Below are positions 43,075 through 64,000 of a stretch of 64,000 nucleotides of DNA, one piece after another. Each line of letters begins with the position of its first letter. The first letter of the stretch is position 1. This stretch comes from Bacillota bacterium (GTDB lineage: Bacteria; Bacillota; Clostridia; Oscillospirales; QAMX01), in NCBI GenBank assembly GCA_033813635.1, contig JAPXRI010000009.1, positions 2,858 to 66,857 of the forward strand. Reading direction: 5' to 3'. Below the pieces are notes generated by a model, which saw nothing but the letters and a program-made list of their open reading frames with translations, ran no database searches and had not been told where the DNA came from. The translations under genes and the position numbers were made by a program.

Positions 43075-43250
43075 TTAATATATGTGGGCAGGGCGTGGCG
43101 CAAGCGGCCGGCGCTTTTTTAGGTAACCCGTCCCACCGCGTTTTGTCTTTTTTAACATGGCTCCGCGATTTCAACGTGATTAAGCGCTTTTCCGCCAAAA
43201 GCGTCATACATAAGCATAAGCATCAATTAGGCGGAGAAATGGGGAGAAAA

Positions 43251-44564
43251 ATGCAAATATCATTTCGCAAGATGCGCGGCGTAAACCTCGACCATATGAA
43301 GCGGACGAGATTGTCCGAAACAGTCGAAATGCCCGCGCCCGAATATGTCGTCGTGCCGATGAAACAGCATATCGGCGCGCCCTGCGAGCCCGTCGTCGCC
43401 GCCGGGGATTTTGTCTACGTCGGGCAAAAGGTCGGCGACTCGCAGGCCTTCGTCTCGTCTCCCGTGCATTCGCCGGTGTCCGGAACGGTCGTCGGAATCA
43501 CGGAGATCCTGTCCTCGGGCAACGAGAAAATCAAATGCGTAAAAATCAGGTCGGACGGCAAGCAGACGCTCGACCCCTCGATCGCTCCTCCTGTCATCAA
43601 TACGCGGGAGGATTTTATTAAGGCCGTCAGGGAGGCTGGCATCGTCGGCCTCGGCGGCGCGGGCTTTCCGACACATGTGAAGCTCGCCTATAAGGACATA
43701 GACAAGGTCAAAAAGCTCTATATCAACCTGGCTGAGTGCGAGCCATATATAACCGCGGACAACCGCGAGGTCTTCGAGAACGTCAACGGGATTATAAACG
43801 GGATCAAGCTCGTCCTTAAGTACACCGGCATTCCGGAGGCCGTCGTGGTAGTCGAGAACAACAAGCCGATAGGCACGCAGATTCTGGCGCTGCACCTCTC
43901 CGAGATACCGAACATCAGCCTCAAGGTTATCGGCTCGAAATACCCGAAGGGCGCGGAAAAAATACTGGTCTACGAGGCCGGCGGCCCCGTGATAGGGCGC
44001 GGCAAGCTCCCCGCTGACTGCGGTGTGATTGTGATGAACGTCTCCACCGTCGCCGCGATCGCTGGCTATGTCAAAACCGGCATGCCTCTGACCACCAGGC
44101 GCGTAACCCTCGACGGCGACATGATCACCTCGCCGAAAAACATCCGGGTCCCGATCGGCACCCCGGTCAGGGAGCTTTTGTCCTACTTCGGCATTGACGC
44201 GTCGAAGATCAAGATGCTGCTGGCCGGCGGCGCGATGATGGGCACCTGCGTAATCAACCTCGATTACCCCGTGACCAAGACGACGAACGCGCTTTTATGC
44301 TTCAACGAGTACTACGACAGGGATAAAACCCCTTGCATCCGCTGCGGCAGATGCATCCGGGTGTGCCCCCTAAAGCTCTCCCCGGCGATGATTGAAAAGG
44401 CCTACGACCGGCGCGACGTCAAGGCGCTTGAGGATCTGGACATCGAGCTGTGCATGAACTGCGGCTGCTGCTCCTACGTCTGCCCGGCAAAGCGCGACCT
44501 CTCGCATAAAAATCAGCTCGCGAAGACCTTTATCAAAAATCAAAGGGAAAAGGTCGAGAGATAA
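43251..44564 (+). CDS. rnfC: Rnf complex subunit C
   Basis: GIVGLGGAGFPTHVK NADH/FMN-type motif and two 4Fe-4S motifs (CIRCGRCIRVCP, CMNCGCCSYVCP). The start is ATG at 43251 or 43239; GGGGAG precedes 43251. Confidence 0.9.
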   Translation: MQISFRKMRGVNLDHMKRTRLSETVEMPAPEYVVVPMKQHIGAPCEPVVAAGDFVYVGQKVGDSQAFVSSPVHSPVSGTVVGITEILSSGNEKIKCVKIRSDGKQTLDPSIAPPVINTREDFIKAVREAGIVGLGGAGFPTHVKLAYKDIDKVKKLYINLAECEPYITADNREVFENVNGIINGIKLVLKYTGIPEAVVVVENNKPIGTQILALHLSEIPNISLKVIGSKYPKGAEKILVYEAGGPVIGRGKLPADCGVIVMNVSTVAAIAGYVKTGMPLTTRRVTLDGDMITSPKNIRVPIGTPVRELLSYFGIDASKIKMLLAGGAMMGTCVINLDYPVTKTTNALLCFNEYYDRDKTPCIRCGRCIRVCPLKLSPAMIEKAYDRRDVKALEDLDIELCMNCGCCSYVCPAKRDLSHKNQLAKTFIKNQREKVER

Positions 44565-44671
44565 ACATCTTTTAGAATATATTCCTTGAAGCTTACGGTT
44601 TTGCGCTTTCGGCCCTTCAATCCGAAATTCGGCGAAGCCGCGCAATTCCCGGAAAGAGGAAGTGTAAAAAT

Positions 44672-45601
44672 ATGTTAAAAGAAAATATGCTCGTCGTCAC
44701 CTCCTCCCCGCATATCAAGTCGAAGGTAACGACGCAGAAAATAATGCGGGATGTCATAATAGCCCTTTCTCCGGCCGTCGCGGCTTCGGTCTGGCTTTTC
44801 GGACCGGTTACGCTGCTCGCGACAGCTGTCAGCGTCGCCTCCTGCGTATTCTTCGAGTGGGGCTCGCAGAAGGTCTTCAAAAGACAGTCCGCGATATACG
44901 ACCTGAGCGCGGTGGTCACCGGCATACTGCTGGCGATGAACCTGCCGTCCACCGCCCCGCTCTGGGTATACCCGATAGGCGCGCTCTTCGCGATTGTCTT
45001 CGTTAAGCAGCTTTTCGGCGGCATCGGGCAGAACTTCGCAAACCCAGCGATAGTCGGCAGAATCATCCTCGTACTCTCGTTCACCGGACTCCTTTCAAAC
45101 TACGCGACGCCTTTCGCCTGGTATGACAAGTCCCTCGACGCGGTCACCTCCGCCACACCCCTCGTTAAGGGTGCGGTTCTTCCGTCCCTTACCGATATGC
45201 TGCTTGGCATCCGCGCCGGCGCGATGGGCGAGACCTGCGCGCTCGCGCTGATTCTCGGCGGGCTCTACCTGGTGGTAAGGGGCGTTATCTCCCCCGTGAT
45301 CCCGCTGTCGTTCATCGGCTCCGAGATGCTGCTGGCCTGGGCCTTCGGCGCGGACCCGCTCTATTCGCTTCTTTCCGGCGGTCTGCTGCTGGGCGCCATC
45401 TTCATGGCGACCGACTACTCGACGACGCCCTCGACCTTCGTCGGAAAGCTGATTTTCGGCGTTGGCTGCGGCCTGATCACGGCGGTGATCCGGAGCTTCG
45501 GATCGGCACCGGAGGGTGTCTCCTACTCGATACTGCTGATGAACATCGTCACCCCGCTGCTCGACAGGCACATAAGGCAAAAGCCGTTCGGCAGAGATTA
45601 A
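44672..45601 (+). CDS. rnfD: Rnf complex subunit D
   Basis: 309 aa polytopic NqrB/RnfD-like protein (SSPHIKS..., GFGGIGQNFANPA, SATPL). Confidence 0.9.
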   Translation: MLKENMLVVTSSPHIKSKVTTQKIMRDVIIALSPAVAASVWLFGPVTLLATAVSVASCVFFEWGSQKVFKRQSAIYDLSAVVTGILLAMNLPSTAPLWVYPIGALFAIVFVKQLFGGIGQNFANPAIVGRIILVLSFTGLLSNYATPFAWYDKSLDAVTSATPLVKGAVLPSLTDMLLGIRAGAMGETCALALILGGLYLVVRGVISPVIPLSFIGSEMLLAWAFGADPLYSLLSGGLLLGAIFMATDYSTTPSTFVGKLIFGVGCGLITAVIRSFGSAPEGVSYSILLMNIVTPLLDRHIRQKPFGRD

Positions 45602-45623
45602 GCTTAAGGGAGATGATTTTGTT

Positions 45624-46187
45624 TTGAAAAATATCAAACCGACACTGGTTTTACTGGTAATCTGCGTGATTGTGTCCGCCGCCCTTGCGGTGACCTACCA
45701 TTTCACTAAAACCGCGTCCGATATCGACCCCGATAAAATTATCGCCGAGATGACGGACGATTACAAGGAGGTCCTCCCGGGCGCGACGGCCTTTACATAT
45801 ATTGAGCGGACCGCGGATTACGCCAACGACACGCGGGGCGTGGCCGTCGAGTGGATTAAGAGCGACGCCGGCTACGCTATCACCGTTCACAGCTCCGGGC
45901 AATACGACTCCTCCCCGATAAGAATCCTTGTTGGCATCTCTTACGACGGCGTCGTAACGGGCGTGAAAATCCTGCGCATATCCGAAACGCCGGGCATGGG
46001 CTCGCGGGTCAACTCCTCCGGTTTTCTCTCGCGCTTCATCGGCGGCACTTATTTTTCCGTCGACGGAAGCGTCGGGACAAAGGTGGACACGATGACCAAC
46101 GCGACCTACTCGTCAAAGGCCGTGATATCCGCGGTCAACATCGCCCTTGACAAATTCGCAGAGCTAAACGGCGCGAAAGGAGACTGA
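45624..46187 (+). CDS. rnfG: Rnf complex subunit G (FMN-binding)
   Basis: N-terminal TM segment and an FMN_bind-type motif (SETPGMG, TNATYSSKAV). The ORF track gives a TTG start. Confidence 0.85.
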   Translation: MKNIKPTLVLLVICVIVSAALAVTYHFTKTASDIDPDKIIAEMTDDYKEVLPGATAFTYIERTADYANDTRGVAVEWIKSDAGYAITVHSSGQYDSSPIRILVGISYDGVVTGVKILRISETPGMGSRVNSSGFLSRFIGGTYFSVDGSVGTKVDTMTNATYSSKAVISAVNIALDKFAELNGAKGD

Positions 46188-46195
46188 AATAACCG

Positions 46196-46876
46196 ATGAA
46201 TTCCAACCTGCAAATCCTTAAAAACGGCATTATTGACGAGAACCCGACCCTCCGGCTGCTCCTCGGCATGTGCCCGCCGCTGGCGATTACCACCTCCGCC
46301 TCCAACGCGTTCGGCATGGGCCTCTCCACCACGGCCGTACTGGTCTGCTCAAACGCCGTTATTTCGGCGCTCAGGCGCGTAATAAAAAAGGAAGTCCGGC
46401 TCCCGGCGTACATAGTAATCGTCGCCGGCTTTGTCACAATCGTCAGCCTTGTGCTGCAGGCCTATCTCCCCTCGCTATACTCCGCGCTGGGGATATTCCT
46501 GCCGCTGATCGTGGTCAACTGCATCATCCTCGGCCGCGCCGAGATGTTCGCCAGCAAGAACCCCGTCATCCCGTCGATTTTCGACGGCATCGGCATGGGC
46601 CTCGGCTTTACCGGCGCGCTGCTGATCATAAGCACAATCCGGGAGGTTCTCGGGTCGATGAGCTGGTTCGGGCACGGCTTCTGGGGCGAGAACTCCTCCG
46701 GAATGCTGTTCTTCATCCTGCCCGCCGGCGGCTTCTTTGTAATAGGAATCCTGACCGCGCTGATAAACTACCTCTCCGATTACAAGCTTTCAAAGGTCAA
46801 GGGCTGCGCCGGCTGCCCGTCGGCCGCGCTCTGCTCCGAAGCCTGCGAGAATAAACAGAAGGAGGCCGTTTCATAA
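46196..46876 (+). CDS. rnfE: Rnf complex subunit E
   Basis: NPTLRLLLGMCPPLA... is typical of RnfE/NqrD. Confidence 0.9.
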   Translation: MNSNLQILKNGIIDENPTLRLLLGMCPPLAITTSASNAFGMGLSTTAVLVCSNAVISALRRVIKKEVRLPAYIVIVAGFVTIVSLVLQAYLPSLYSALGIFLPLIVVNCIILGRAEMFASKNPVIPSIFDGIGMGLGFTGALLIISTIREVLGSMSWFGHGFWGENSSGMLFFILPAGGFFVIGILTALINYLSDYKLSKVKGCAGCPSAALCSEACENKQKEAVS

Positions 46877-47475
46877 TGGAAGGCTGGAAGTCGATCGCCT
46901 CGATTCTGCTCGCCTCGATATTCATCGACAATTTCGTTCTGTCAAAGTTCCTCGGCATATGCTCGTTCCTCGGCGTGTCCAACAGGACCTCCAGCGCCCT
47001 CGGCATGAGCGGCTCCGTCGTCTTCGTAATGACGCTGTCGGCTGCGGTGGTCTGGCCGATATACCGCTACGTGCTCTACCCAAACGATCTCGGCTACCTG
47101 AAAATCGTGACCTTTATCCTGGTAATCGCTGTGCTGGTGCAGTGCGTTGAGATCGTGCTCAAGCGCTTTCTGCCGTTCCTGTACTCCGCCCTCGGCGTCT
47201 ACCTGCCGCTGATAACGACAAACTGCGCCGTCCTCGGCGTCGTGCTTTTGAACGTCAATGAGGATTACAACTTCGTGCAGTCTGTCGCCAACGCGTTCGG
47301 CGCGGGGGTGGGCTACAGCCTCGCGATCCTGATGTTCTCCGGCATCCGCGAAAAAATGGATACCTGCGACATCCCGAAGGCGTTCAAGGGCATGCCCTCG
47401 GCGCTGATTGCCGCGTCGATCGTCTCCCTGTCATTCGCGGGCTTTGCGGGCATCATCGAAGGCATTTTCGGTTAA
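46876..47475 (+). CDS. rnfA: Rnf complex subunit A
   Basis: RnfA/NqrE-like (NFVLSKFLGICSFLG). The ATG overlaps the rnfE TAA. Confidence 0.9.
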   Translation: MEGWKSIASILLASIFIDNFVLSKFLGICSFLGVSNRTSSALGMSGSVVFVMTLSAAVVWPIYRYVLYPNDLGYLKIVTFILVIAVLVQCVEIVLKRFLPFLYSALGVYLPLITTNCAVLGVVLLNVNEDYNFVQSVANAFGAGVGYSLAILMFSGIREKMDTCDIPKAFKGMPSALIAASIVSLSFAGFAGIIEGIFG

Positions 47476-47490
47476 ATCGGAGGTCAACCT

Positions 47491-48306
47491 ATGAGTTTTT
47501 ATCTTCCAATTATTCTGTTTGTCGCCCTCGCGGTGCTCTCCGGGGGGATACTGACGTTTTTGTCGATAAAATTCCCCGGCGAGGCCTCGGATATAGAGAT
47601 CAGCGTAAGAAACGCCCTCCCGGGCCTGAACTGCGGCATGTGCGGCTTCGCCGGCTGCGACGAGTACGCCACTAAAGCGGCAAAGGATAAAATCGCGCCG
47701 AACCTGTGCGTCCCCGGCGGCGCCAAGACCGCCGCGGCCATCAGCGAGCTCACCGGCGTCCCCTTCGAATCGGTGAAGGAGGTCGTCGCCTACGTCCACT
47801 GCAACGGAAACTACTCCGCGACGACGGATAAATACAACTACCGCGGCGTTCTCTCCTGCGCGGCCTCGAGCCTTTTCTACGGCGGGAGAAGCTCCTGCCG
47901 AGACGGCTGCCTGGGCTTCGGCGACTGCGCGGAGGTCTGCCCCTCCGGCGCGCTCAGCGTCACCAACGGCTGCGCGCATGTGGACGAGGCGCTATGCTCC
48001 GGCTGCATGCTCTGCACAAAGATATGTCCGAAGCACATCATCGTGCCAAAGCCGAAATACGCGCCCGTCGCCGTCACCTGCAGCTCAAAGCTTTTAGGCA
48101 AGGATATCCGCCTCGTATGCAAAAACGGCTGCATCGCCTGCAAGCGCTGCGAAAAGAGCTGCGAATCCGGCGCGGTAAAGGTTATGGACAATTTCGCGAA
48201 AATCGACTACTCCCTGTGCACCAACTGCGGCAAATGCGCCGAGGTATGCCCCGTCGGCTGCATTAAAGACGCGCGCAAAACATTGACGGTTGAAAAAGCG
48301 GTATAA
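47491..48306 (+). CDS. rnfB: Rnf complex subunit B (polyferredoxin)
   Basis: N-terminal TM segment, LPGLNCGMCGFAGCDEYA, and several CxxCxxCxxxCP clusters. Confidence 0.9.
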   Translation: MSFYLPIILFVALAVLSGGILTFLSIKFPGEASDIEISVRNALPGLNCGMCGFAGCDEYATKAAKDKIAPNLCVPGGAKTAAAISELTGVPFESVKEVVAYVHCNGNYSATTDKYNYRGVLSCAASSLFYGGRSSCRDGCLGFGDCAEVCPSGALSVTNGCAHVDEALCSGCMLCTKICPKHIIVPKPKYAPVAVTCSSKLLGKDIRLVCKNGCIACKRCEKSCESGAVKVMDNFAKIDYSLCTNCGKCAEVCPVGCIKDARKTLTVEKAV

Positions 48307-52078: not shown

Positions 52079-52107
52079 TTGACTTTTTCATACGGCAGTC
52101 GTATGAT
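52079..52107 (+). promoter_or_regulatory. Near-consensus sigma-A promoter for the glycyl-radical enzyme gene
   Basis: TTGACT (52079-84), 17 nt spacer, TATGAT (52102-07). Confidence 0.55.
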
Positions 52108-52149
52108 ATGCGTGAATTGAAATCTACTACAATAATAAGCGGTGATTCC

Positions 52150-54279
52150 ATGTCGTTTTCGTTTCCTTCCGCTTCCTGTCCGCGCCCGGTCAGGCTGTCC
52201 GAGCGCACCCGCGAGTTTGCGCGCGAATCCCTTTCCGGAAAATACGGCCGCGCCCTGAAGGCTACACCCTTCGTCCCGCTGGACGATATTCCTGGCTTCG
52301 AGGCCCTTTCGCCCTATGACAAATACGACGCGGCGATCACGAGAATAGCGGAGACCGCGCCCGTCCGGATTGCTCCGGGGGAGCTTATCAGCGGCAGCGC
52401 GACGCTTATCGAAGCTGTGCACCATGTCGTCCCAGGGTTTTTCGGCGGCAAAGCCCTGTTTTCAAGCGTCAGCCATCTGACCTGCGACTTCGCGCGGGTT
52501 CTCCGCGAGGGCGCCGACGGCTTTTTAGACGAGATCAACGCCCGCCTCGCCCTCCCCGCAGACGCCGAACAACAGCGGTTTCTCAAATCGCTGCTTAACG
52601 TCTACGAAGCGCTGAAAATCTGGCATGGCCGCTATATCTCCGCCCTCGAAGCTCTCGCTGGGGACCGGAGCGGGACAGCTTACGAGACAAACCTTGAAAA
52701 TCTGAGAAGCGTGCCCTTTTCCCCTCCCCGGAGCTTTGCGGAAGCGCTCCAGAGCCTTTGGTTCACCTTCGCGTTCATCCGCCTCTGCGGCAACTGGCCT
52801 GGCATAGGCCGGCTTGACGAAATGCTCGGGCCGTTCCTCGAAAAGGATCTAGCGTCCGGGAAAATTACTGAGGACATGGCCAGAGAATACCTCGCCCACT
52901 TTTTCATCAAGGGCTGCGAGTGGGTGACCCTCGACAACGTAGGCAGCGGCGACGCCCAGCATTACCAGAATATCGTCCTCGCCGGGGTCGACGGGGACGG
53001 AGAGCCGGTGACCGGAACGGTGACGCGGCTGATTTTGGAGGTTCTCGAGGAGCTGCCCATCTCCGACTTTCCTGTAGCCGTGAGGCTCTCTCCGGACTCG
53101 CCCGAATGGCTTACCGAGGCGATGGCCCGGGTTATCCGCCACGGTGGCGGCGTAGTCGCGGCCTACAACGAGCCGTTGATCATCGACAGCCTCACCGGTT
53201 TCGGCTACCCGCTGCGCGAGGCCAGGGAGTTCGCGAACGACGGCTGCTGGGAGGTGCAGATCCCGGGCATGACCTGTTTTACATACCGGCCCTTTGACGC
53301 CCACCGCCTGCTTTTGAACGACGTGCTAGGCCTTAACGAAAAAGGCCCCGAAAACCGGCGCTACGAGAGCTACGACGAGATATACAACGAATACCTGAAA
53401 TGCCTCGACCGGAGCATCGACGAGTTCCACTCCTCCGCGGACGGTTTCGGCAAAGATAAAACGCCCTGCTCGGTGGTCTCGTTTTTCGAGACCGGCTGCG
53501 CGCAGAGCGCCCGATCGTACCTCGACGGCGGCCCCGTCTATACCTGCCTTTCCCCGCATCCCGGCGGGCTACCCGACGCGGTGAACAGTCTATACGCGAT
53601 AAAAAAGCTGGTTTTTAACGAAAAGCGGATAACTTTGGACGAATTTCTATCCGTTTTAAAGCGCAACTGGGAGGGCAGCGAGCCCCTCCGCAGGTATGTC
53701 AGAACCGCTTACAGCTACTACGGCAATGACAACCCGGAAGTCGACGAAATCATGAACGGGATTTTGTCCCACTATATCGCCTATGCCCGGCGCGTAAAGG
53801 AGCGCGCCGGCGTCAAGCGCCCGCCCGGGATATCCACCTTCGGCAGGCAGATTGAGTGGCGAAACGACCGCACGGCCTCTCCCCACGGCTTTTTTTCCGG
53901 CGACATCCTTTCCGGGAACCTCTCGCCCACGCCGTCTACCGATAAAAACGGCCCGACCGCGGTTATCCGCTCGCACTGCTCGGCCGATTTTTCCGGCCTG
54001 ACCTGCGGCACCGCGCTCGACATGAAGCTTGACCCCTCCGCGGTCCAAGGCCCGGCGGGCATAGAGGCAATCCGCTCGCTTCTGACCGGCTTTGTTACGC
54101 TGGGCGGCTTCTTCATACAGATCGACGTCGTGGACGCCGCCGTACTGGAGGACGCACAGAAACACCCCGAGAATTACCAGAATCTCGCCGTGCGTGTCTC
54201 CGGCTGGTCCGCCCGCTTTATCACCCTTGATAAAAACTGGCAGCGGATGATCATCGAGAGGGCTAAGAGCAGCCGCTAA
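52150..54279 (+). CDS. Glycyl radical enzyme, PFL2/eliminase-like, substrate unknown
   Basis: C-terminal glycyl radical motif NLAVRVSGWSARFITL. Cys loop NDGCWEVQ (G-C-x-E). GRE-type segments DSLYAIKKLVF-like (NSLYAIKKLVFNEKRITLDEF) and YYGNDNPEVDEI. About 709 aa from ATG at 52150. Confidence 0.8.
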   Translation: MSFSFPSASCPRPVRLSERTREFARESLSGKYGRALKATPFVPLDDIPGFEALSPYDKYDAAITRIAETAPVRIAPGELISGSATLIEAVHHVVPGFFGGKALFSSVSHLTCDFARVLREGADGFLDEINARLALPADAEQQRFLKSLLNVYEALKIWHGRYISALEALAGDRSGTAYETNLENLRSVPFSPPRSFAEALQSLWFTFAFIRLCGNWPGIGRLDEMLGPFLEKDLASGKITEDMAREYLAHFFIKGCEWVTLDNVGSGDAQHYQNIVLAGVDGDGEPVTGTVTRLILEVLEELPISDFPVAVRLSPDSPEWLTEAMARVIRHGGGVVAAYNEPLIIDSLTGFGYPLREAREFANDGCWEVQIPGMTCFTYRPFDAHRLLLNDVLGLNEKGPENRRYESYDEIYNEYLKCLDRSIDEFHSSADGFGKDKTPCSVVSFFETGCAQSARSYLDGGPVYTCLSPHPGGLPDAVNSLYAIKKLVFNEKRITLDEFLSVLKRNWEGSEPLRRYVRTAYSYYGNDNPEVDEIMNGILSHYIAYARRVKERAGVKRPPGISTFGRQIEWRNDRTASPHGFFSGDILSGNLSPTPSTDKNGPTAVIRSHCSADFSGLTCGTALDMKLDPSAVQGPAGIEAIRSLLTGFVTLGGFFIQIDVVDAAVLEDAQKHPENYQNLAVRVSGWSARFITLDKNWQRMIIERAKSSR

Positions 54280-54303
54280 AGCTATTAAAAAAATCCAAAC
54301 AAA

Positions 54304-54338
54304 AGCTGCCGCAAAACGAAACGCGTTTTGCGGCAGCT
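54304..54338. terminator. Bidirectional terminator
   Basis: 15-bp stem AGCTGCCGCAAAACG / CGTTTTGCGGCAGCT, with an A-run before and CTTTTT after. Confidence 0.75.
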
Positions 54339-54342
54339 CTTT

Positions 54343-55773
54343 TTAGTATTGCTTGAAAACCCTGTCAAGCTCGGCCTGGATCAGCGGAGCAAATGTCTCC
54401 GCCGCCTGAGCCGGCGACATCGATCCCTCGTAGACGCTCTTGTAGAAGTTTCTCCGGGTGATCTCGTACATTTCGTCGCTGCATTTGGCGATATTCAGCA
54501 TGCCGTAGGGCAGCAGGTATTTCGTCAGCACCTGATAGGAATCCACGCAGTTCAGCGTTTCCTGCAGGTATTTGGCGTACTCCTCGTCGTCGTGCACCCT
54601 CCTGCCCAGCTCGTTTAATGTGCGCGCGGCTGTGTCCCACCGTTTGACCGATTTGGGCATGCAGTAGACGTCGACGTCGACAAAGTTCATTGTGTAATGC
54701 TGCGTATCCGGCCCCCTCGGGATCGGCAGCAGCCCGACCTCATCGTCCATAATCGCCGTGCCGGCGTCGACCCCGTCATAGCCGTAATTCGGCCCGTACA
54801 GACCGGCAAACGCGGCCTTCCCGCTGTAGAACAGCGCGCGGCGGGCCACCCTGCCCAGCGTAGCCTCGCCGGTCAGCGGTGGCGAGAGCTTGCCGTTCGC
54901 GTTCAGCGCCGCCATATAGGTAAGCGCGGTGATGATTTTCTGGTCGTTGCAGTTGGCCTTCCACTTCTTAACGTCGCTGTCATAGGTTATCGGTCCGGTG
55001 TCGTTAGACCATATCTCGTTTCCGTCGCAGTCCAGCGCGATGCCCCAGATGTCCGTAACGCCGTCGTTGTTTGTATCCTGCGTGGCCACCGTCGCAATCT
55101 CGATCATCTTATCGTATGTCCAGTTGTAGTTGTAGACGAGACTGAACATCGATTCCGGGCTGTAGCCCACCGACGCGAGAATTTCCTTGTTAAACGCGTA
55201 GGTATGCCCGAAAGCCATCTGTTCGTATTTGCCGGACATGTCGACGCCCCAGCAATGCGACTCACCGCCCTGGCGAAGATAAGTAAGCCTGGTATAGGGC
55301 TGGTAAAAGCAGTCCGAATCGCCGACATCAAGCCCGGCCTGCTTCATCCCGTCCGTCTCCAGCGGGTAAAGCATATTGTTGACGGCGAGCGGGATCCATG
55401 TTGACTGGCGCACCCTGACAATATCCGCGATTTTCACCCCGGAAATCACGGAGGCCGAAAGCGCGGCGTAATCTGCGTTTGCCGGGCTGAAGGATATTTT
55501 GACGCTGCACAGCTCCTCAACCTCCGACAATATTTCAGCGAGCTCTTCCGCCTCCGATGTCCCCTCGCGGTTTGCCGGGTTAAGTCTGGTCGAGCCCGCG
55601 ATCACAAACTGATACCGCTCGCCTGGAAACGACGTTATCAGCATAGAGACGGTTGATGTCTCCCCCGCCGTCGTTTGGCCCGCCGGCGTTTTCTTGTTTT
55701 CCAGGCAGCCGCCGAGCATCGACGCGGTTGTTAAAACCGCGAGGAAAAGCAATAGAAGCCTTATTTTTTTCAT
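54343..55773 (-). CDS. Orphan ABC-type solute-binding lipoprotein (paralog 1)
   Basis: Lipobox MLGGCLENK. 476 aa. Shares motifs with the next gene (CFYQPYT.L, NWTYDKMIEIA, GIALDC, KWKAN, DSYQVLTKYLLP). Confidence 0.75.
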   Translation of the reverse strand: MKKIRLLLLFLAVLTTASMLGGCLENKKTPAGQTTAGETSTVSMLITSFPGERYQFVIAGSTRLNPANREGTSEAEELAEILSEVEELCSVKISFSPANADYAALSASVISGVKIADIVRVRQSTWIPLAVNNMLYPLETDGMKQAGLDVGDSDCFYQPYTRLTYLRQGGESHCWGVDMSGKYEQMAFGHTYAFNKEILASVGYSPESMFSLVYNYNWTYDKMIEIATVATQDTNNDGVTDIWGIALDCDGNEIWSNDTGPITYDSDVKKWKANCNDQKIITALTYMAALNANGKLSPPLTGEATLGRVARRALFYSGKAAFAGLYGPNYGYDGVDAGTAIMDDEVGLLPIPRGPDTQHYTMNFVDVDVYCMPKSVKRWDTAARTLNELGRRVHDDEEYAKYLQETLNCVDSYQVLTKYLLPYGMLNIAKCSDEMYEITRRNFYKSVYEGSMSPAQAAETFAPLIQAELDRVFKQY

Positions 55774-55856
55774 TTCACTTCTCCCCGCCGCAGCTTCTTT
55801 TAAATAAATCTACCCCGAAGGCCGCGGTCATCCGGAATCACACCGTAACTCAGATA

Positions 55857-55885
55857 ATAATACATTTTCTTTTCGCATTTTGCAA
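55857..55885 (-). promoter_or_regulatory. Candidate promoter for SBP paralog 1
   Basis: Minus strand TTGCAA (55885-80), 17 nt spacer, TATTAT (55862-57). Confidence 0.35.
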
Positions 55886-55955
55886 TATGTTTATCCGTTG
55901 CCGCGAAAAAACTGTTGAATTTTCAATGCGGGATTCCCCGGCCCCGGGGCGGTGT

Positions 55956-57323
55956 CTATTTCGCAAACAGCTCTTCAAGCGCGCTCTGCAGTTTGGCCCC
56001 GAAGGCCTCCGCGGCGTTTTCCGGCGCGACCGTCCCGCCGAGCACTGCGCCGTATAGCTCCGAAACACATTCATTCGCCTCGCCGCCAAAGCCCGCGGTA
56101 TTCAGCGCGGCGTTCGGGAGCAGGTATTCCGTCACAACCCGGTAGGAGTCTTCGCAGTCCAGCAGCACATAGGTCTTCAGGTATTTCAGATATTCATCCC
56201 CGCTCTGGAGCTTTCGGGAGATTTTATCAATCAGATAAGCCGCCTTATCCGGCTCCGCGCAGGACGCGGGCATGCAGAAGAGCCTCGCGTCCGCTCTCGT
56301 CAGCGTATATCCCTCGGCGTCCGGCCCCTTCGGGACCGGCAGGAATCCGAACGGATTTCCGCTGGAAAGTATCTGCGCCCTTTCGCGTATGCCGCCCGTT
56401 TCCGAAACGCCGAGGAAACCGGCCCTTCCTTCTAAAAACAGTTCTACCCTGTCAGCCTCCGACAGTCCGGAAAGGTCCCCGGCTTCCGAGACATTTTTTA
56501 TAAAGTCAAGCGAGGTCGTAAATTTTCTGTCAGCGAGGTTTGCCTTCCATTTTCCGTCAGATGCATTATAAACCACCGGCCCGGCCCCGTTGCTCAGCGC
56601 CTCGCCCTCCGGGCAGCCCAGCGCGATTCCGAAATTGCCCCGCGCCCCGCCGCTGTCCTTTGATATTTTTACCGCGATCTCGAGCATTTTTTCATACGTC
56701 CACTGTCCGTCGTACACCAGCTTGAATACGCTCTCCGCCGGATAACCCGCCGCGGCGGTCAGAACCTTGTTGAATGCGTAGAGATAGCCCGGGTCCGGAG
56801 CGATGTACGCGCCCGACAGGTCTACGCCGTAGGTGTGCTCCTCCCCGTCGAGGGCAAAATCCGATAGGTGGGTATAGGGCTGATAAAAGCAGGCCGCGTC
56901 GTTGACGTCGAGCCCGGCTCTCCGCATTTCGTTCGTATCCAGCGGCAAAAGCGCACCCTGCGCAAGAAGCGGAATCCACTCGTTCTGCGAAAGCTGCGCA
57001 AAGCCGTTTATCGGCGTCCCCGACGAAACCGTGGCAATCACCGCTTCGGCGCCGCCCGAAAGCTCGGTGAACTTAATCTTGCAGCCGTATTCGCTCTCGA
57101 TTTCCCCGTAGATTTCCGCAAGCCGGTCCGCGAACGATGTGAACCGCCATTGCTCGCCCGACGGGTTGAGCGCGTCCGCCCCGGCAAATATGAATTCGTA
57201 CCCGCCCAGGTCCCTGGGAGCCGCTGTTTCCGCGGATGTCTCCGCGGCACCCGCAGGTTTGGAACAGCCCGCAAACGCCGCCAGCGCGGCCGCGAGGATA
57301 AGGCACCAGACCTTGATTTTCAT
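55956..57323 (-). CDS. Orphan ABC-type solute-binding lipoprotein (paralog 2)
   Basis: Lipobox AAFAGCSKP. 455 aa. Motifs CFYQPYTHL, QWTYEKMLEIA, GIALGC, KWKAN, DSYRVVTEYLLP. Confidence 0.75.
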   Translation of the reverse strand: MKIKVWCLILAAALAAFAGCSKPAGAAETSAETAAPRDLGGYEFIFAGADALNPSGEQWRFTSFADRLAEIYGEIESEYGCKIKFTELSGGAEAVIATVSSGTPINGFAQLSQNEWIPLLAQGALLPLDTNEMRRAGLDVNDAACFYQPYTHLSDFALDGEEHTYGVDLSGAYIAPDPGYLYAFNKVLTAAAGYPAESVFKLVYDGQWTYEKMLEIAVKISKDSGGARGNFGIALGCPEGEALSNGAGPVVYNASDGKWKANLADRKFTTSLDFIKNVSEAGDLSGLSEADRVELFLEGRAGFLGVSETGGIRERAQILSSGNPFGFLPVPKGPDAEGYTLTRADARLFCMPASCAEPDKAAYLIDKISRKLQSGDEYLKYLKTYVLLDCEDSYRVVTEYLLPNAALNTAGFGGEANECVSELYGAVLGGTVAPENAAEAFGAKLQSALEELFAK

Positions 57324-57559
57324 ACTGTTCTCCTTTCGCGTTTTTACCTTTCCGTATCACGATAATATTTTATTATTATTCTCCGATATTATCTATCGTC
57401 AATACAGCTAAATCCGCGCCACCGGATTTGTGAGATTATACAAATCCCGGCGCGCATTAATCTGCGGAATATACGATTGCTCATATTCTTGCTTTGTATC
57501 TTTTGTCCCGGTTTTGTGCTATAATCATCCGTGGGACAATCTTCCGAAAGGAGACGCAT

Positions 57560-58558
57560 ATGGGTTTTTTCAACCGCGCATTGTCCGGCCTTTGCCTCGC
57601 GGGCGAGCCAGTCAGGCTCTGCCCGGCGGAAATGAAACCGCTCAAAGGCAATCTTTATTCGAAGCCTTTGCCCGGCGCTGCGGAGCGGAGAGCTTTCTTC
57701 CGCTCGAGTTCACCCTCGCTCCCGGGGACGAAACCCATGCCGAGCCCCTTAGGCGGCTGCTCTTCGAACACCACGGGCTTCCCGTTTTTCGATCTCTCGC
57801 CGGAGGACAGGCCGTATGTCTTCGGCATCGGCTGGTCGGGCCAGCGGCAGCAGGGATGTCTCCGTGTCCGACTGTGCGGTGACGGTAAAAGCAAGCCTCT
57901 GCGACGCGGATTTCTATCTTAGGCCGGGCGAGGAGGTCGCTCTTCCGTCCGTAATCTGCCCCGAGGGCGGCGAGGTCTCCGACGCGCGCAGGCAATTCCG
58001 CGCGCTGCTGCGGGAGAGCTTCAGCCCGCGCACGCGCCTCGGCGATAAACTGGATATCCCCCTCGCCATCCAGCCCTTCGACCGGTATTTCAGGCATGTC
58101 CCGGAGTGGGCGACCGAGGCCGGGCAGCTTAAACATGTAAACGGGCTCTACCGCCTGTGGGCCACGCTGCTTGACGCTTTCCCCGGCCTTTTAATCCACA
58201 ACTGCTCGAGCGGAGGCAGCGGATTCTCGCCGAGGAGCAGCGGCTTGAAAAATACTGGGACGGGGATTTCTACCCTCTGACCGAGCCGACGATCGACGAG
58301 AGCGGTTGGTGCGCCTGGCAGCTCTCGCTCGGCGATTCCGGCGCCGTTATCGCCTTCCGCCGGGAGGACTGCGTGAAAAACAGCTTCAAGGCGGCACTCT
58401 CCGCGATATCCGGCGAGAAGACGTACCGCGTCACCCTCACGGATGAGGGTCGTTCGCAGACAGTTCGGGATATATCCGGCGCGGAGCTCTCGGAGGGCAT
58501 CCTCCTTGAGACCCGCGGCCCGCGCGAGAGCGCTGTTCTGGAATACCGGGCGCTGTAA
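57560..58558 (+). pseudogene. Degraded GH36-like (alpha-galactosidase family) glycoside hydrolase remnant
   Basis: AAAGGAG RBS plus ATG at 57560. Recognisable pieces lie in all three frames: FLPLEFTLAPGDE (frame 1); YVFGIGWSGQ (frame 2); FYLRPGEEVALPSVI and LIHNCSSGG (frame 0); GDFYPLTEP...AFRRED...YRVTLTDEG (frame 2). At ~1 kb it is far too short for the family. Confidence 0.5.
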
Positions 58559-58585
58559 TCATAAAAAACTCATAGGAGAAAAATC

Positions 58586-59323
58586 ATGGGGATAATAAAA
58601 TACGGTTTTCTTGACGTGGACGGGACGAAAATCGAGTATGAGGTGAGCGGGAAACCGGACGGCGAGCCGCTGTTGCTGCTGGCTGGCAACGGCGGGGACA
58701 TGCACTGCTTTGAGGACAGCCTTTTGCCCGAGCTCTCCGAGCGCTTCAAGATTCTCCGCCTTTCCACCCGGGGCACCGGCAAATCGGACCGTGGACCCGG
58801 CAGGCTCACCTTCGAGACGGAGGCAGACGACATCCGCGCGCTTCTCGACAGTCTTGGCATCGATAAAACCAATATTTTCGGCTTCAGCGACGGCGGAAAC
58901 CTCGGCCTTGTCTTTACGGTCGCGTACCAGGAAAGGGTCAAAGCGCTCGCGGTAATGGGGTCAAACCTGAACACCTTAGGGACGAAGACTCGGGAACAGC
59001 TCAAGATACACAAGAAGTTCGTAGCACTCTCGCGCAAGGCCAAAAAGACAAACGACCCCGCCGTCGCGCTGGCACGCGACATCGAGGGCATGATGGTAGG
59101 CCAGCCCCGCCTGAACTTCAAAAAAATCAGCGTGATTAAGGTGCCGTTTCTGAATATCTACGGCGAACACGATATGATCAAGCGCCGCCACTCCCGCAGT
59201 ATAACCAGAGCCGTCGAAAACGGCGATGAAATGATGATCCTGAACCGCGGCCACGGCTCGTCGTTTGACAAAAGCCGCCTCTTCATTATCCCCGTTCTCC
59301 TCCGTTTCTTCGGCGCGATATAG
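58586..59323 (+). CDS. Alpha/beta hydrolase
   Basis: Nucleophile elbow GFSDGGN. 245 aa. Typical LLLLAGNGGD start of the fold. Confidence 0.75.
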   Translation: MGIIKYGFLDVDGTKIEYEVSGKPDGEPLLLLAGNGGDMHCFEDSLLPELSERFKILRLSTRGTGKSDRGPGRLTFETEADDIRALLDSLGIDKTNIFGFSDGGNLGLVFTVAYQERVKALAVMGSNLNTLGTKTREQLKIHKKFVALSRKAKKTNDPAVALARDIEGMMVGQPRLNFKKISVIKVPFLNIYGEHDMIKRRHSRSITRAVENGDEMMILNRGHGSSFDKSRLFIIPVLLRFFGAI

Positions 59324-62227: not shown

Positions 62228-64000
62228 TTATTTTATCGCGGTGCCGTTCGGGATGCTGCCGTCCACGAAAACCACCTTGCAGCCGCAGGCGTTGTTCGTT
62301 CCTGCGAGGAGCATGCCCTGCGAGGTCACTCCGGTGATGCGCGCGGGCTTTAAGTTCGCAACGACGATGATTTTCTTGCCCACAAGCTCTTCCGGCTTGT
62401 AGTCGTGCTTTATCGACGAGACGATCACGCGCTCGCCGAGGCCGTCGTCAAGGGTGAGCTTATAGCAGTTCTGCGATTTTCTTATCTCCTGGCACTTGAG
62501 GATCTCACAGACGCGCAGGTCAAGCTTATCGAAATAATCTATGTCGACCTCCGGCTTGACCGGCTTCACCGGGTCCGGCTCGCGCTGCTCCGGCGCGGGT
62601 TCCTCCTCCGGGGCCTCTTCATCAGGCGCCGTTTCGGCCCTCTCCTCCTCCGCGGTCTTCGGGTAGGAAAAATCCAGAAGCGGAAGGTAGCGCTCTTTTT
62701 CTATCGCGAACAGGAACAGATAGAGCCTCGGGCCCTTTTCCTTGCCGATTAAAAGCCTGTAGACATTTTTGAAAAATATGCTCTGGAGCTCCTTGCGCGC
62801 GTTCTGGTCGTCGTTCTCGAGCCCGTAGACCTTCTGCGGGATCGCGTAGATTGCGGCGTTCAGTTCATCCAGCGTATAGCTGCCGTTGGAGAGGTAGCTG
62901 TGAAGCTCGGCAATCTCCTGTTTTTCCTCCGCGGACAGGGTCTCGTAGACCTCCCAGTTCCGGTGTTCGCGCAGGCGGTTGACATTTTCCGGACTGCACT
63001 TCTCAAGCCAGAATTTCGCGCGGCCGAGCCTGTCCGCAAACTCCGCCTCCTTGTACGGCGTCCCGATCTTCTCAAAGACCGTTTCCAGCATCGCCGGGTT
63101 AAAATCCACCACCGAGCCGAGCTGCACAAGCAGGCTCATCGGTACGGGCTTTATCTCTCTGCCCTCGATCAGGCAGTTTTCCATAATTTCGCGGACGGTC
63201 TCGTCGGCCTTCCCGCTCAGGTAATCGCCGTACATCCTGTCAAACTCGAAATACTGCTTTAGTATCCCGTCGTCAAAGCAGAAATCGAAGGCCTTGGTCG
63301 GGTCGGTCTTCGCGTAGAGCCAGAGAATGACCTCGGGCTGGTAAAGATTAAGGAGCACCTCGGGGGTCAGGTTCAGACCCGACGAGCTGGACATCTTGCC
63401 GGTCGACCCCTTGATGCCGATAAACTCGTAGCCCTGGAAAATCGGCGGCTCGTAGCCGAAGATTTTCTTCGAGATAACCTTTGAGGTCTGATAGCTTCCC
63501 ATCGGCGCTGCGTGGTCCTTGCCGCCCGGCTCGAAGTCGACGCCCTCGTATGCCCAGCGCATCGCCCAGTCCACTTTCCAGGAGAGCTTGCAGTTGTGGT
63601 CGTTTTTGAAATCAAATCTGCCGGCGTGTCCGCAGGCGCATTCATATTCGGCGGCCGCGGTCTTATCGTCGAACGCAGTGATCTTCGTCGTGTCCCTGCC
63701 GCAGACGGGACAGTAGATCGAAACCGGGAAATAGCTCTCCCGCTCCCCCGGCTGTGAATCCTGCGTGCGGAACGAATCCAGTATATCGAATATCTCGCCG
63801 CGTTTTTCAAGCGCCAGCAGAATATAGTCCGTGTATTTCCCCGAGCGGTACATCTCGGCCTGATGGCGGTAATCCATTTCGATGCCGAAGCGCCTGACCG
63901 ACCTCTCAAACTCCTGCTCGAAATGCTCCGCGTAGCTCTTCGCCTGCTTATCCTCCTCAAAGGGGTTCGGCACGTCGGCGTAGGGGCAGCCGATGTATTT
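62228..64000 (-). CDS. lysK: Class I lysine--tRNA ligase fused to a C-terminal Trbp111/CsaA-like tRNA-binding domain (N-terminus outside the window)
   Basis: KMSSS motif (GSTGKMSSSSG). Zn-type CPVCG...CACGH. Acidic/Pro-rich linker. C-terminal FDKLDLRVCEILKCQEI...IVVANLKPARITGVTSQGMLLA. The ORF is still open at nt 64000. Confidence 0.8.
   Translation of the reverse strand, partial: KYIGCPYADVPNPFEEDKQAKSYAEHFEQEFERSVRRFGIEMDYRHQAEMYRSGKYTDYILLALEKRGEIFDILDSFRTQDSQPGERESYFPVSIYCPVCGRDTTKITAFDDKTAAAEYECACGHAGRFDFKNDHNCKLSWKVDWAMRWAYEGVDFEPGGKDHAAPMGSYQTSKVISKKIFGYEPPIFQGYEFIGIKGSTGKMSSSSGLNLTPEVLLNLYQPEVILWLYAKTDPTKAFDFCFDDGILKQYFEFDRMYGDYLSGKADETVREIMENCLIEGREIKPVPMSLLVQLGSVVDFNPAMLETVFEKIGTPYKEAEFADRLGRAKFWLEKCSPENVNRLREHRNWEVYETLSAEEKQEIAELHSYLSNGSYTLDELNAAIYAIPQKVYGLENDDQNARKELQSIFFKNVYRLLIGKEKGPRLYLFLFAIEKERYLPLLDFSYPKTAEEERAETAPDEEAPEEEPAPEQREPDPVKPVKPEVDIDYFDKLDLRVCEILKCQEIRKSQNCYKLTLDDGLGERVIVSSIKHDYKPEELVGKKIIVVANLKPARITGVTSQGMLLAGTNNACGCKVVFVDGSIPNGTAIK

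Follow-up and report, generated by a model that had tools for sequence, protein, structure and literature searches.

The 64-kb stretch of Bacillota bacterium DNA analyzed here (contig JAPXRI010000009.1; hereinafter, the window) contains, on the forward strand at positions 52150..54279, a gene for a glycyl radical enzyme (GRE) of 709 amino acids (aa) plus a stop codon, with no gene for an activating enzyme nearby. We consider it rather probable that this gene encodes a functional, monocistronically expressed member of a group of compact GREs (denoted here the C-W-E family, in reference to its invariant Cys loop FANDGCWE), which would cleave a C-O bond in a substrate other than glycerol or propanediol and would receive its radical in trans. 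The identification of the protein draws on Pfam searches, structural modeling, Foldseek comparison and family-wide conservation, whereas the proposed reaction and mode of activation follow from comparisons with characterized GREs and with the genomes of relatives.

Identity and extent of the C-W-E family

The assignment of the GRE domains is far beyond chance given the Pfam E-values of 7.5e-82 for PFL-like (PF02901) and 7.1e-22 for Gly_radical (PF01228), both matches scoring far above the gathering scores. The AlphaFold (AF2) model of the window GRE, built on 25 family sequences, has a mean predicted local distance difference test score (pLDDT) of 88.3 and a predicted template modeling score (pTM) of 0.90. 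All of the top 50 Foldseek matches of this model in the PDB are GREs, with template modeling (TM) scores of 0.76-0.84 (0.82-0.84 to 5i2g and 1r8w), and the closest solved structures are those of glycerol dehydratase (GDH) and propanediol dehydratase (PD), at about 23-27% identity. Both hallmark motifs named in an earlier, sequence-only reading of this gene are present. The glycyl radical loop RVSGWSA (aa 682-688; 54193..54213), identified with Pfam Gly_radical, aligns with RVAGYSA of 1r8w and includes the radical-bearing Gly685, with V681, R682, G685, W686, A688, R689 and F690 invariant in the family. The Cys loop NDGCWEV (aa 363-369; 53236..53256) encompasses Cys366, Trp367 and the predicted catalytic base Glu368, with the Cys and the Glu aligned with C433 and E435 of GDH; all residues from F361 to E368 are invariant in the family, and C366 also aligns with C438 of PD and C434 of HypD. 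Thus, the possibility that misalignment of the Gly and Cys would expose a non-radical homolog is not borne out, as Gly, Cys and Glu of the window GRE all align correctly.

No NCBIfam equivalog or curated family claims the window GRE, all scores being far below the respective cut-offs: the PFL2-3 subfamily model TIGR01774 yields 277.5 bits against a cut-off of 678.2, and the HypD, HpsG, HpfG, CutC, indoleacetate/HPA decarboxylase and PFL equivalogs yield 65-250 bits against cut-offs of 994-1150. A 2026 review counts six C-O, one C-N and three C-S eliminases together with three isomerases (PMC13450708), and none of the characterized eliminases and isomerases is closer than about 25% identity to the window GRE. 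Tight clustering with a characterized GRE, which the sequence-only reading had named as a potential objection, is therefore not observed, given the equivalog scores below the cut-offs and the best PDB match at only 23-27% identity. By these sequence comparisons, the window GRE falls within the GRE superfamily and outside all of its characterized subfamilies.

The relatives of this protein were retrieved with the patterns FANDGCWE or GD[ASG]QHYQN, taking one genome per species. Pattern scanning followed by confirmation identified at least 587 species-level genomes that encode a C-W-E enzyme (50-59% identity), nearly all from uncultured gut or digester Clostridia, with one from a cultured strain, Hydrogeniiclostridium mannosilyticum ASD2818. 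In sequence databases, more than 120 clusters are 52-59% identical to the window GRE and contain proteins of 693-741 aa. About 150 positions are invariant across the family, including F361-E368, H109, Y272, the LCGNWPGIGR and STFGRQ motifs and the Gly loop; the window GRE carries FANDGCWE, GD[ASG]QHYQN, LCGNWPGIGR and SGW[SN]ARF along with the characteristic length of about 700 aa. In the phylogenetic tree, the family forms a single clade (support 100) that is far removed from the remaining seven GREs encoded in this genome. Our literature search found no paper characterizing the C-W-E family.

In a comparison with L030, L032 and G025-G055, the window GRE shows 57-59% identity to family members of other lineages (e.g., Hydrogeniiclostridium) but only 50-54% to the copies from its own taxonomic family, a pattern that could mean that the gene alone was acquired horizontally.

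The window GRE (709 aa, compared to 787 aa in GDH) is indeed compact and short in the N-terminal region, as the sequence-only reading had it; this is, however, a trait of the whole family rather than a peculiarity of one gene. In the profile alignment, residues 49-99 of the window GRE pair with residues 40-90 of GDH, after which residue 98 pairs with residue 152 of GDH, which corresponds to a deletion of about 61 residues (GDH ~91-151); small deletions occur elsewhere. The larger deletion is the main cause of the reduced size. The same holds for the segment ASPHGFFSGD (aa 576-585; 53875..53904, read from the sequence), which had been singled out as replacing the ATPDGR segment: it is present, but such an alteration, like the compactness, is typical of the entire family as well as of the Clostridia GRE radiation at hand. 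The family-wide form of the segment is A-[ST]-[PA]-[HFYQ]-G-[RKFH], with the Asp generally lost and the Arg variable. The Arg-to-Phe change in this segment was considered as a correlate of activase loss and rejected, the segment being variable and the pattern appearing phylogenetic.

Active site, predicted reaction and substrate

Beyond the Cys and Gly loops, two further catalytic positions of GDH are retained in the window GRE. The loop SVSHLT that follows beta-1 (52465..52482; profile alignment with 1r8w, 5i2a and 6vxc) contains His109, which aligns with the general acid His164 of GDH, the His of the GVGHVT loop of PD and the equivalent His of HypD; S108 and H109 are both invariant across the C-W-E family. 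In the strand GDAQHYQN (52948..52971), Tyr272 aligns with Tyr339 of GDH. The AF2 model shows pLDDT below 50 at aa 264-267, directly ahead of this strand.

The surroundings of these residues differ from those in GDH. The family signature LCGNWPGIGR (52783..52812), with invariant W216, takes the place of the GDH segment that contains His281 and Ser282, which align with Pro217 and Gly218, respectively. Trp367 occupies the position of Val434 of GDH next to the thiyl Cys. In the segment FTYRPFD that follows the Cys loop (53278..53298), Tyr379 replaces Asp447, with F377, Y379 and D383 invariant in the family, and in the strand PGISTFGRQ (53824..53850), Ser562 replaces Tyr640 and is followed by the invariant Arg566 and Gln567. 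We take S282, D447 and Y640 to be among the residues of GDH that contact the diol substrate. Additional family-wide invariant residues are D268, Q270, H271, N363 and D364.

In CXE-type GREs, that is, those with a Cys-x-Glu loop, the Glu forms a hydrogen bond with the substrate hydroxyl and deprotonates it, while in GDH the departing hydroxyl receives a proton from His164 (PMC13450708). By analogy, we propose that an activase would place the radical on Gly685, from which it would move to Cys366; the resulting thiyl radical would take a hydrogen from the carbinol carbon of the substrate, and deprotonation of that hydroxyl by Glu368 would give a ketyl radical. His109 would then protonate the leaving group on the neighboring carbon, so that the C-O bond breaks, after which the product radical would regain a hydrogen from Cys366. 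The outcome would most likely be dehydration and, less likely, ring-opening isomerization of the YbiW/PflD type. The sequence-only reading had considered the Cys-x-Glu arrangement to be a mark of eliminases; the motif is there, but it is not diagnostic, given that the GRE isomerases HplG, YbiW and PflD share it (PMC13450708). Nevertheless, the conserved Cys-x-Glu, His109 and Tyr272 jointly point to radical C-O cleavage, with dehydration as the most likely reaction, and the retention of His109 favors a hydroxyl or alkoxy leaving group.

Judging from the aligned residues, neither glycerol nor propanediol is the substrate, since the contact positions differ from those of GDH and PD. No gene for a microcompartment shell protein (PF00936) was detected in the whole genome; together with the changes in the predicted pocket, this argues against a pathway that proceeds via a volatile aldehyde from a diol or via choline. 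The richness of the pocket in Trp, Tyr, Asn, Asp, Gln, His and Arg, along with the AraC-type regulator that usually accompanies the family, weakly suggests a polar, possibly carbohydrate-derived small molecule.

Loss of the adjacent activase and proposed activation in trans

The genomic context of the family was assessed in the 80 best loci, 75 of which extend far enough downstream for scoring the activase. A PFLE/PFLC-type activase is encoded directly downstream of the GRE in 54 of these 75 loci, and a divergent AraC-type regulator gene lies upstream in 41 of the 80. Apart from these two, no gene recurs in more than five of the 80 loci; an FGGY kinase follows the GRE in three loci and a class II aldolase in one. 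These two, as well as a GH38-like gene, a nucleoside phosphorylase, MnmE and a MATE pump, were examined as potential clues to the substrate and rejected as lineage-specific, and no NCBIfam equivalog matched the AraC regulator, the oxidoreductases or the binding proteins. On the GRE tree, the adjacent activase was lost at least 13 independent times, and the window GRE itself sits in a 17-member clade that mixes activase-linked and activase-less members. Given these multiple losses, the orphan state is a derived one, reached repeatedly by this three-gene module, and not a property of the enzyme type. The Gly loop is the same in activase-linked and activase-less members. In two genomes of the same taxonomic family (G034:C9:24130-27101 and G035:C14:22524-25504), the GRE and the activase are encoded in one frame, with open frames of 859 and 872 aa and a single TGA between the two in each.

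The window itself, and likewise the 75-kb contig that contains it, lacks a radical-SAM activase gene. The search for remnants included genome-wide profile searches with TIGR02494 and TIGR02493, a scan for CxxxCxxC, and tblastn with 46 cognate activases and 42 AraC regulators. On the contig, the sole TIGR02494 match is a weak one to the RnfB ferredoxin domain; CxxxCxxC occurs twice in the window, in RnfB and in a metallophosphoesterase, and both matches were rejected as a hidden activase. The tblastn search detected no credible remnant of an activase or regulator beside the GRE gene: a gapped antisense match within an alpha/beta-hydrolase gene (58505-58930) contains a stop and was rejected, as was an AraC gene at 23.5 kb, which belongs to a sulfatase operon, as a regulator of the module. 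Thus, the description of the gene as an orphan holds, and indeed extends to the whole window, although not as a peculiarity of the enzyme, the family normally having an activase. The additional claim that a locus without an activase is unusual for GREs has to be qualified, given that genomes of this taxonomic family commonly encode more GREs than activases.

In members of this taxonomic family with a genome completeness of 90% or more, the GRE:activase ratio is 8:5 in the genome from which the window comes (G000), 4:1 in G029, 21:~10 in G038, 11:~6 in G039 and 8:4 in G040; one genome of the family encodes 21 PFL-like proteins in 2.8 Mb. All 22 searched genomes with a family GRE encode at least one activase. 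The genome of origin is a draft (2.7 Mb in 50 contigs, 93.5% complete), and its eight GREs are mutually distant (24-33% identity). The complete lack of activases in the genome, which would have spoken against an active enzyme, is thus not the case: five activases of the PFLE/PFLC type are present. Three of these adjoin other GREs, on contigs C5, C14 and C24, whereas two stand alone, namely, C3:22231-23112 and C25:1-903, the latter cut by the contig end. The orphan GREs of this genome other than the window GRE are encoded on C2, C12, C13 and C31. Both stand-alone activases adjoin an oxidoreductase of the GFO/IDH/MocA family (inositol/sugar dehydrogenase-like; C3:21025-23112 and C25:1-2093), a pairing that is found in three other genomes as well (L116, L118, L139), in two of which the paired activase is the only one detected. 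In the activase tree, the clade of cognate activases (A) includes that of H. mannosilyticum (L032:12117-12998) and, from two activase-less genomes, the stand-alone copies L119 (G008) and L124 (G001); it has as its sister a mostly stand-alone clade (B), with activases from the other activase-less genomes; a third clade (C) contains all five activases of the genome of origin.

Since both the regulator and the activase are absent from the locus, we infer that the glycyl radical is installed in trans. The activase involved would be non-cognate or shared, or else encoded in the unassembled ~6.5% of the genome. Within the assembly, the stand-alone activases C25:1-903 and C3:22231-23112 appear to be the most plausible candidates; phylogeny does not permit the trans-activase to be named, as no activase of this genome groups with the cognate clade. 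Cross-activation is on record between GREs with near-identical Gly loops (2026 review), and the Gly loop of the GRE on C24 of this genome, RVSGFSA, differs from RVSGWSA by one residue. Sharing of activases would fit this near identity, the presence of activases in 22 of 22 genomes, the excess of GREs, and the same loop in linked and unlinked members. On contig C31 (C31:106-3913), another compact GRE (665 aa) lies 105 nucleotides (nt) from the contig end and is followed by a homolog of GH127-like beta-L-arabinofuranosidase; the truncated activase on C25, also at a contig end, could be the upstream neighbor of this GRE. A more specific version of the proposal, in which the stand-alone activases next to GFO/IDH/MocA oxidoreductases act as generalists that arm several compact GREs, the window GRE among them, and the C-W-E enzyme cleaves a C-O bond of a new, neutral carbohydrate-derived substrate, is advanced here only tentatively.

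Several observations weigh against activation in trans by a shared activase, or against the functional reading as a whole. All five activases of the genome belong to clade C (split support 99) and none to clades A or B, so that any of them would be non-cognate for the window GRE, and non-cognate activation is treated as unusual in the literature (2026 review). Furthermore, of the 19 other activase-less genomes searched, 18 encode an activase of clade A or B away from the GRE, e.g., L119 (G008) and L124 (G001), G017 being the only one without. Given that this rarity (1 of 19) is about the same as the missing fraction of the genome, an unassembled activase of clade A or B, acting from a distance as an own-family activase, is a serious alternative, consistent with a 93.5% complete assembly in 50 contigs. 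Any given gene, however, has only a ~6.5% chance of falling into the missing fraction, G017 likewise lacks a clade A or B activase, and two of the five activases present have no adjacent GRE and could serve; all considered, we regard this alternative as possible but doubtful. The AF2 model is of low confidence (pLDDT below 50) exactly at the glycyl radical loop (aa 679-693; 54184-54228). The proposal on the substrate, in turn, derives from pocket composition, and no transporter, kinase or downstream enzyme is conserved in the family loci.

Two other explanations concern whether the gene is functional and which enzyme it encodes. The lack of an activase in the window, of an AraC partner at the locus and of a cognate-clade activase in the assembly, together with a decayed glycosidase 3 kb away, would be compatible with a stranded, non-functional relic that is heading toward a pseudogene. 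Yet, the 709-aa frame is intact, and in a leave-one-out test on positions with 97% or higher conservation among the remaining 80 family members, the window GRE matches 153 of 153, i.e., has no mismatches, on par with the best activase-linked members; across the family, the number of mismatches ranges from 0 to 9, and linked and activase-less members are not obviously different. The terminal branch of the window GRE (0.72) is similar in length to those of its neighbors on the tree, a strong promoter, ribosome-binding site and terminator are retained, and activase-less members persist across many lineages. Because of this complete match, the ordinary branch length and the intact expression signals, we conclude that the gene appears to be under purifying selection and in use; decay is hardly to be expected here. 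Nearly as improbable is the possibility that the protein is a short ortholog of the B12-independent dehydratase of glycerol or 1,2-propanediol. In its favor are the top matches by sequence and fold (1r8w, 5i2a, 5i2g, 9rco) and the conserved Cys, Glu, His and Tyr339 equivalent, but the identity is only 23-27%, the TIGR01774 score is 277 bits versus the cut-off of 678, the profiles of HypD, CutC and PflD score nearly the same, the substrate contacts of GDH are replaced, and there is neither a microcompartment shell gene in the genome nor a conserved set of aldehyde-handling genes near the family members. A functional C-W-E enzyme with a distinct substrate and activation in trans thus remains the reading that we prefer.

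The reading frame is open over 52108-54279 on the forward strand, and its translation is PFL-like. A sigma-70-like promoter TTGACT-17-TATGAT (52079..52107) shows 10 of 12 consensus matches in a scan that found four sites in the region compared to 1.0 expected in shuffled sequences. Because the -10 hexamer ends at 52107, the ATG at 52108 is upstream of the likely transcription start, and given also the ribosome-binding site GGTGA (52141..52145), which was read from the sequence and lies 4 nt ahead of the ATG at 52150, the latter is the likely start codon; the resulting 709-aa product is identical to the database protein P0002. A bidirectional intrinsic terminator (54304..54338; 15 pairs on the forward and 18 on the reverse strand, with T tracts on both) is common to the GRE gene and the convergent binding-protein gene and separates the two. 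The promoter and the 15-bp-stem terminator proposed from the sequence were therefore both recovered by our scan.

Gene neighborhood, significance and comparison with known systems

Downstream of the terminator, on the reverse strand (54343-57323), two paralogous lipoproteins that resemble solute-binding proteins are encoded (39% identity). The second carries the lipobox FAGC, the match to SBP_bac_1 is faint or none, and no permease or ATPase gene adjoins the pair. Next comes a frame-broken remnant (57412-58558) with a weak Pfam match to melibiase (glycoside hydrolase family 36; E 0.005) that is divided among two or more frames; this remnant is probably the dead glycosidase noticed previously; a PA14/SpaA-type surface protein is also encoded in the neighborhood. 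The binding lipoproteins without a permease and the broken glycosidase are thus real, but the hint of a sugar substrate drawn from them finds no support in conservation, as none of these genes, nor that of the surface protein, is conserved beside the family members in the 80 best loci.

Upstream of the GRE gene, a six-gene cluster (43095-48306, forward strand) has the layout of an rnfCDGEAB operon: according to Pfam, the first gene encodes RnfC_N and the Nuo51 FMN-binding domain and the last one an RnfB-like Fe-S protein, and the four middle genes are assumed to be the remaining subunits by size and order. After the cluster come a heptaprenyl-diphosphate-synthase-I/ECF-S-like gene and one for a QueT transporter. 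At the far end of the window (62228-64000, reverse strand), a gene that runs off the window end encodes a fusion protein in which a class I lysyl-tRNA-synthetase-type catalytic domain (PF01921) precedes a tRNA_bind domain at the C-terminus.

GREs contribute to prominent gut chemistry, including the formation of trimethylamine, H2S, p-cresol and skatole, and according to a 2026 review, whole GRE clades are still without function and activase specificity is barely studied. The C-W-E family is one such large uncharacterized clade, compact, with a distinctive pocket and represented in hundreds of gut species, and its substrate, once found, would extend the known repertoire of anaerobic reactions. 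By itself, the single window locus adds little beyond what the family shows; its value is chiefly to represent this large clade and to provide a natural test case for activase promiscuity, a conserved GRE without an activase of its own in a genome with eight GREs and five activases. If one activase arms several GREs, the assumption of one activase per GRE would have to be revised, and the bottleneck of finding a soluble, working activase would ease.

Of the known systems, GDH of C. butyricum (1R8W/1R9D) and PD of R. inulinivorans (5I2A/5I2G; 9RCO) have the same ten-stranded barrel (TM 0.82-0.84), and the window GRE keeps their Gly loop, Cys-x-Glu loop and the equivalents of His164 and Tyr339 (His109 and Tyr272). 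It differs from both in sequence (about 23-25% identity), in being ~80 aa shorter, with GDH ~91-151 deleted, in the replaced contacts (H281 by Pro, S282 by Gly, D447 by Tyr, Y640 by Ser and V434 by Trp), and in having no adjoining activase and no microcompartment genes in its genome.

HypD is a trans-4-hydroxy-L-proline dehydratase, and HpyG/HpzG are N-methyl-hydroxyproline dehydratases. HypD (6VXC) and HpyG/HpzG (8ID1, 8IOF) share the CXE loop with the window GRE, and the His is kept in HypD; the HypD/HpyG-type profiles score 338 and 332 bits compared to 359 bits for GDH. The HypD equivalog NF043068, however, reaches 250 bits against a cut-off of 1100, and the amine-binding Asp278 of HypD aligns with Gly218. 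The isomerases YbiW/PflD (8ID7, 8ID0, 8YJO) and HplG (7VUA) have the CXE loop and the fold in common with the window GRE (profile scores of 279-328 bits) but are no closer to it than the dehydratases are, and the family loci show no conserved association with a phosphotransferase system (PTS) or with a kinase and an aldolase together. Nevertheless, YbiW/PflD catalyze the ring opening of 1,5-anhydrohexitol-6-phosphate, so that CXE enzymes can act on sugar derivatives (PMC13450708). CutC and the C-S lyases IslA/IseG/HpsG are set apart by their equivalog scores (CutC, 195 against a cut-off of 1050; HpsG, 247 against 1000) and by the lack of microcompartment genes in the genome of the window GRE, but they share with the C-W-E family the CXE loop, the fold and the PFLE/PFLC type of activase.

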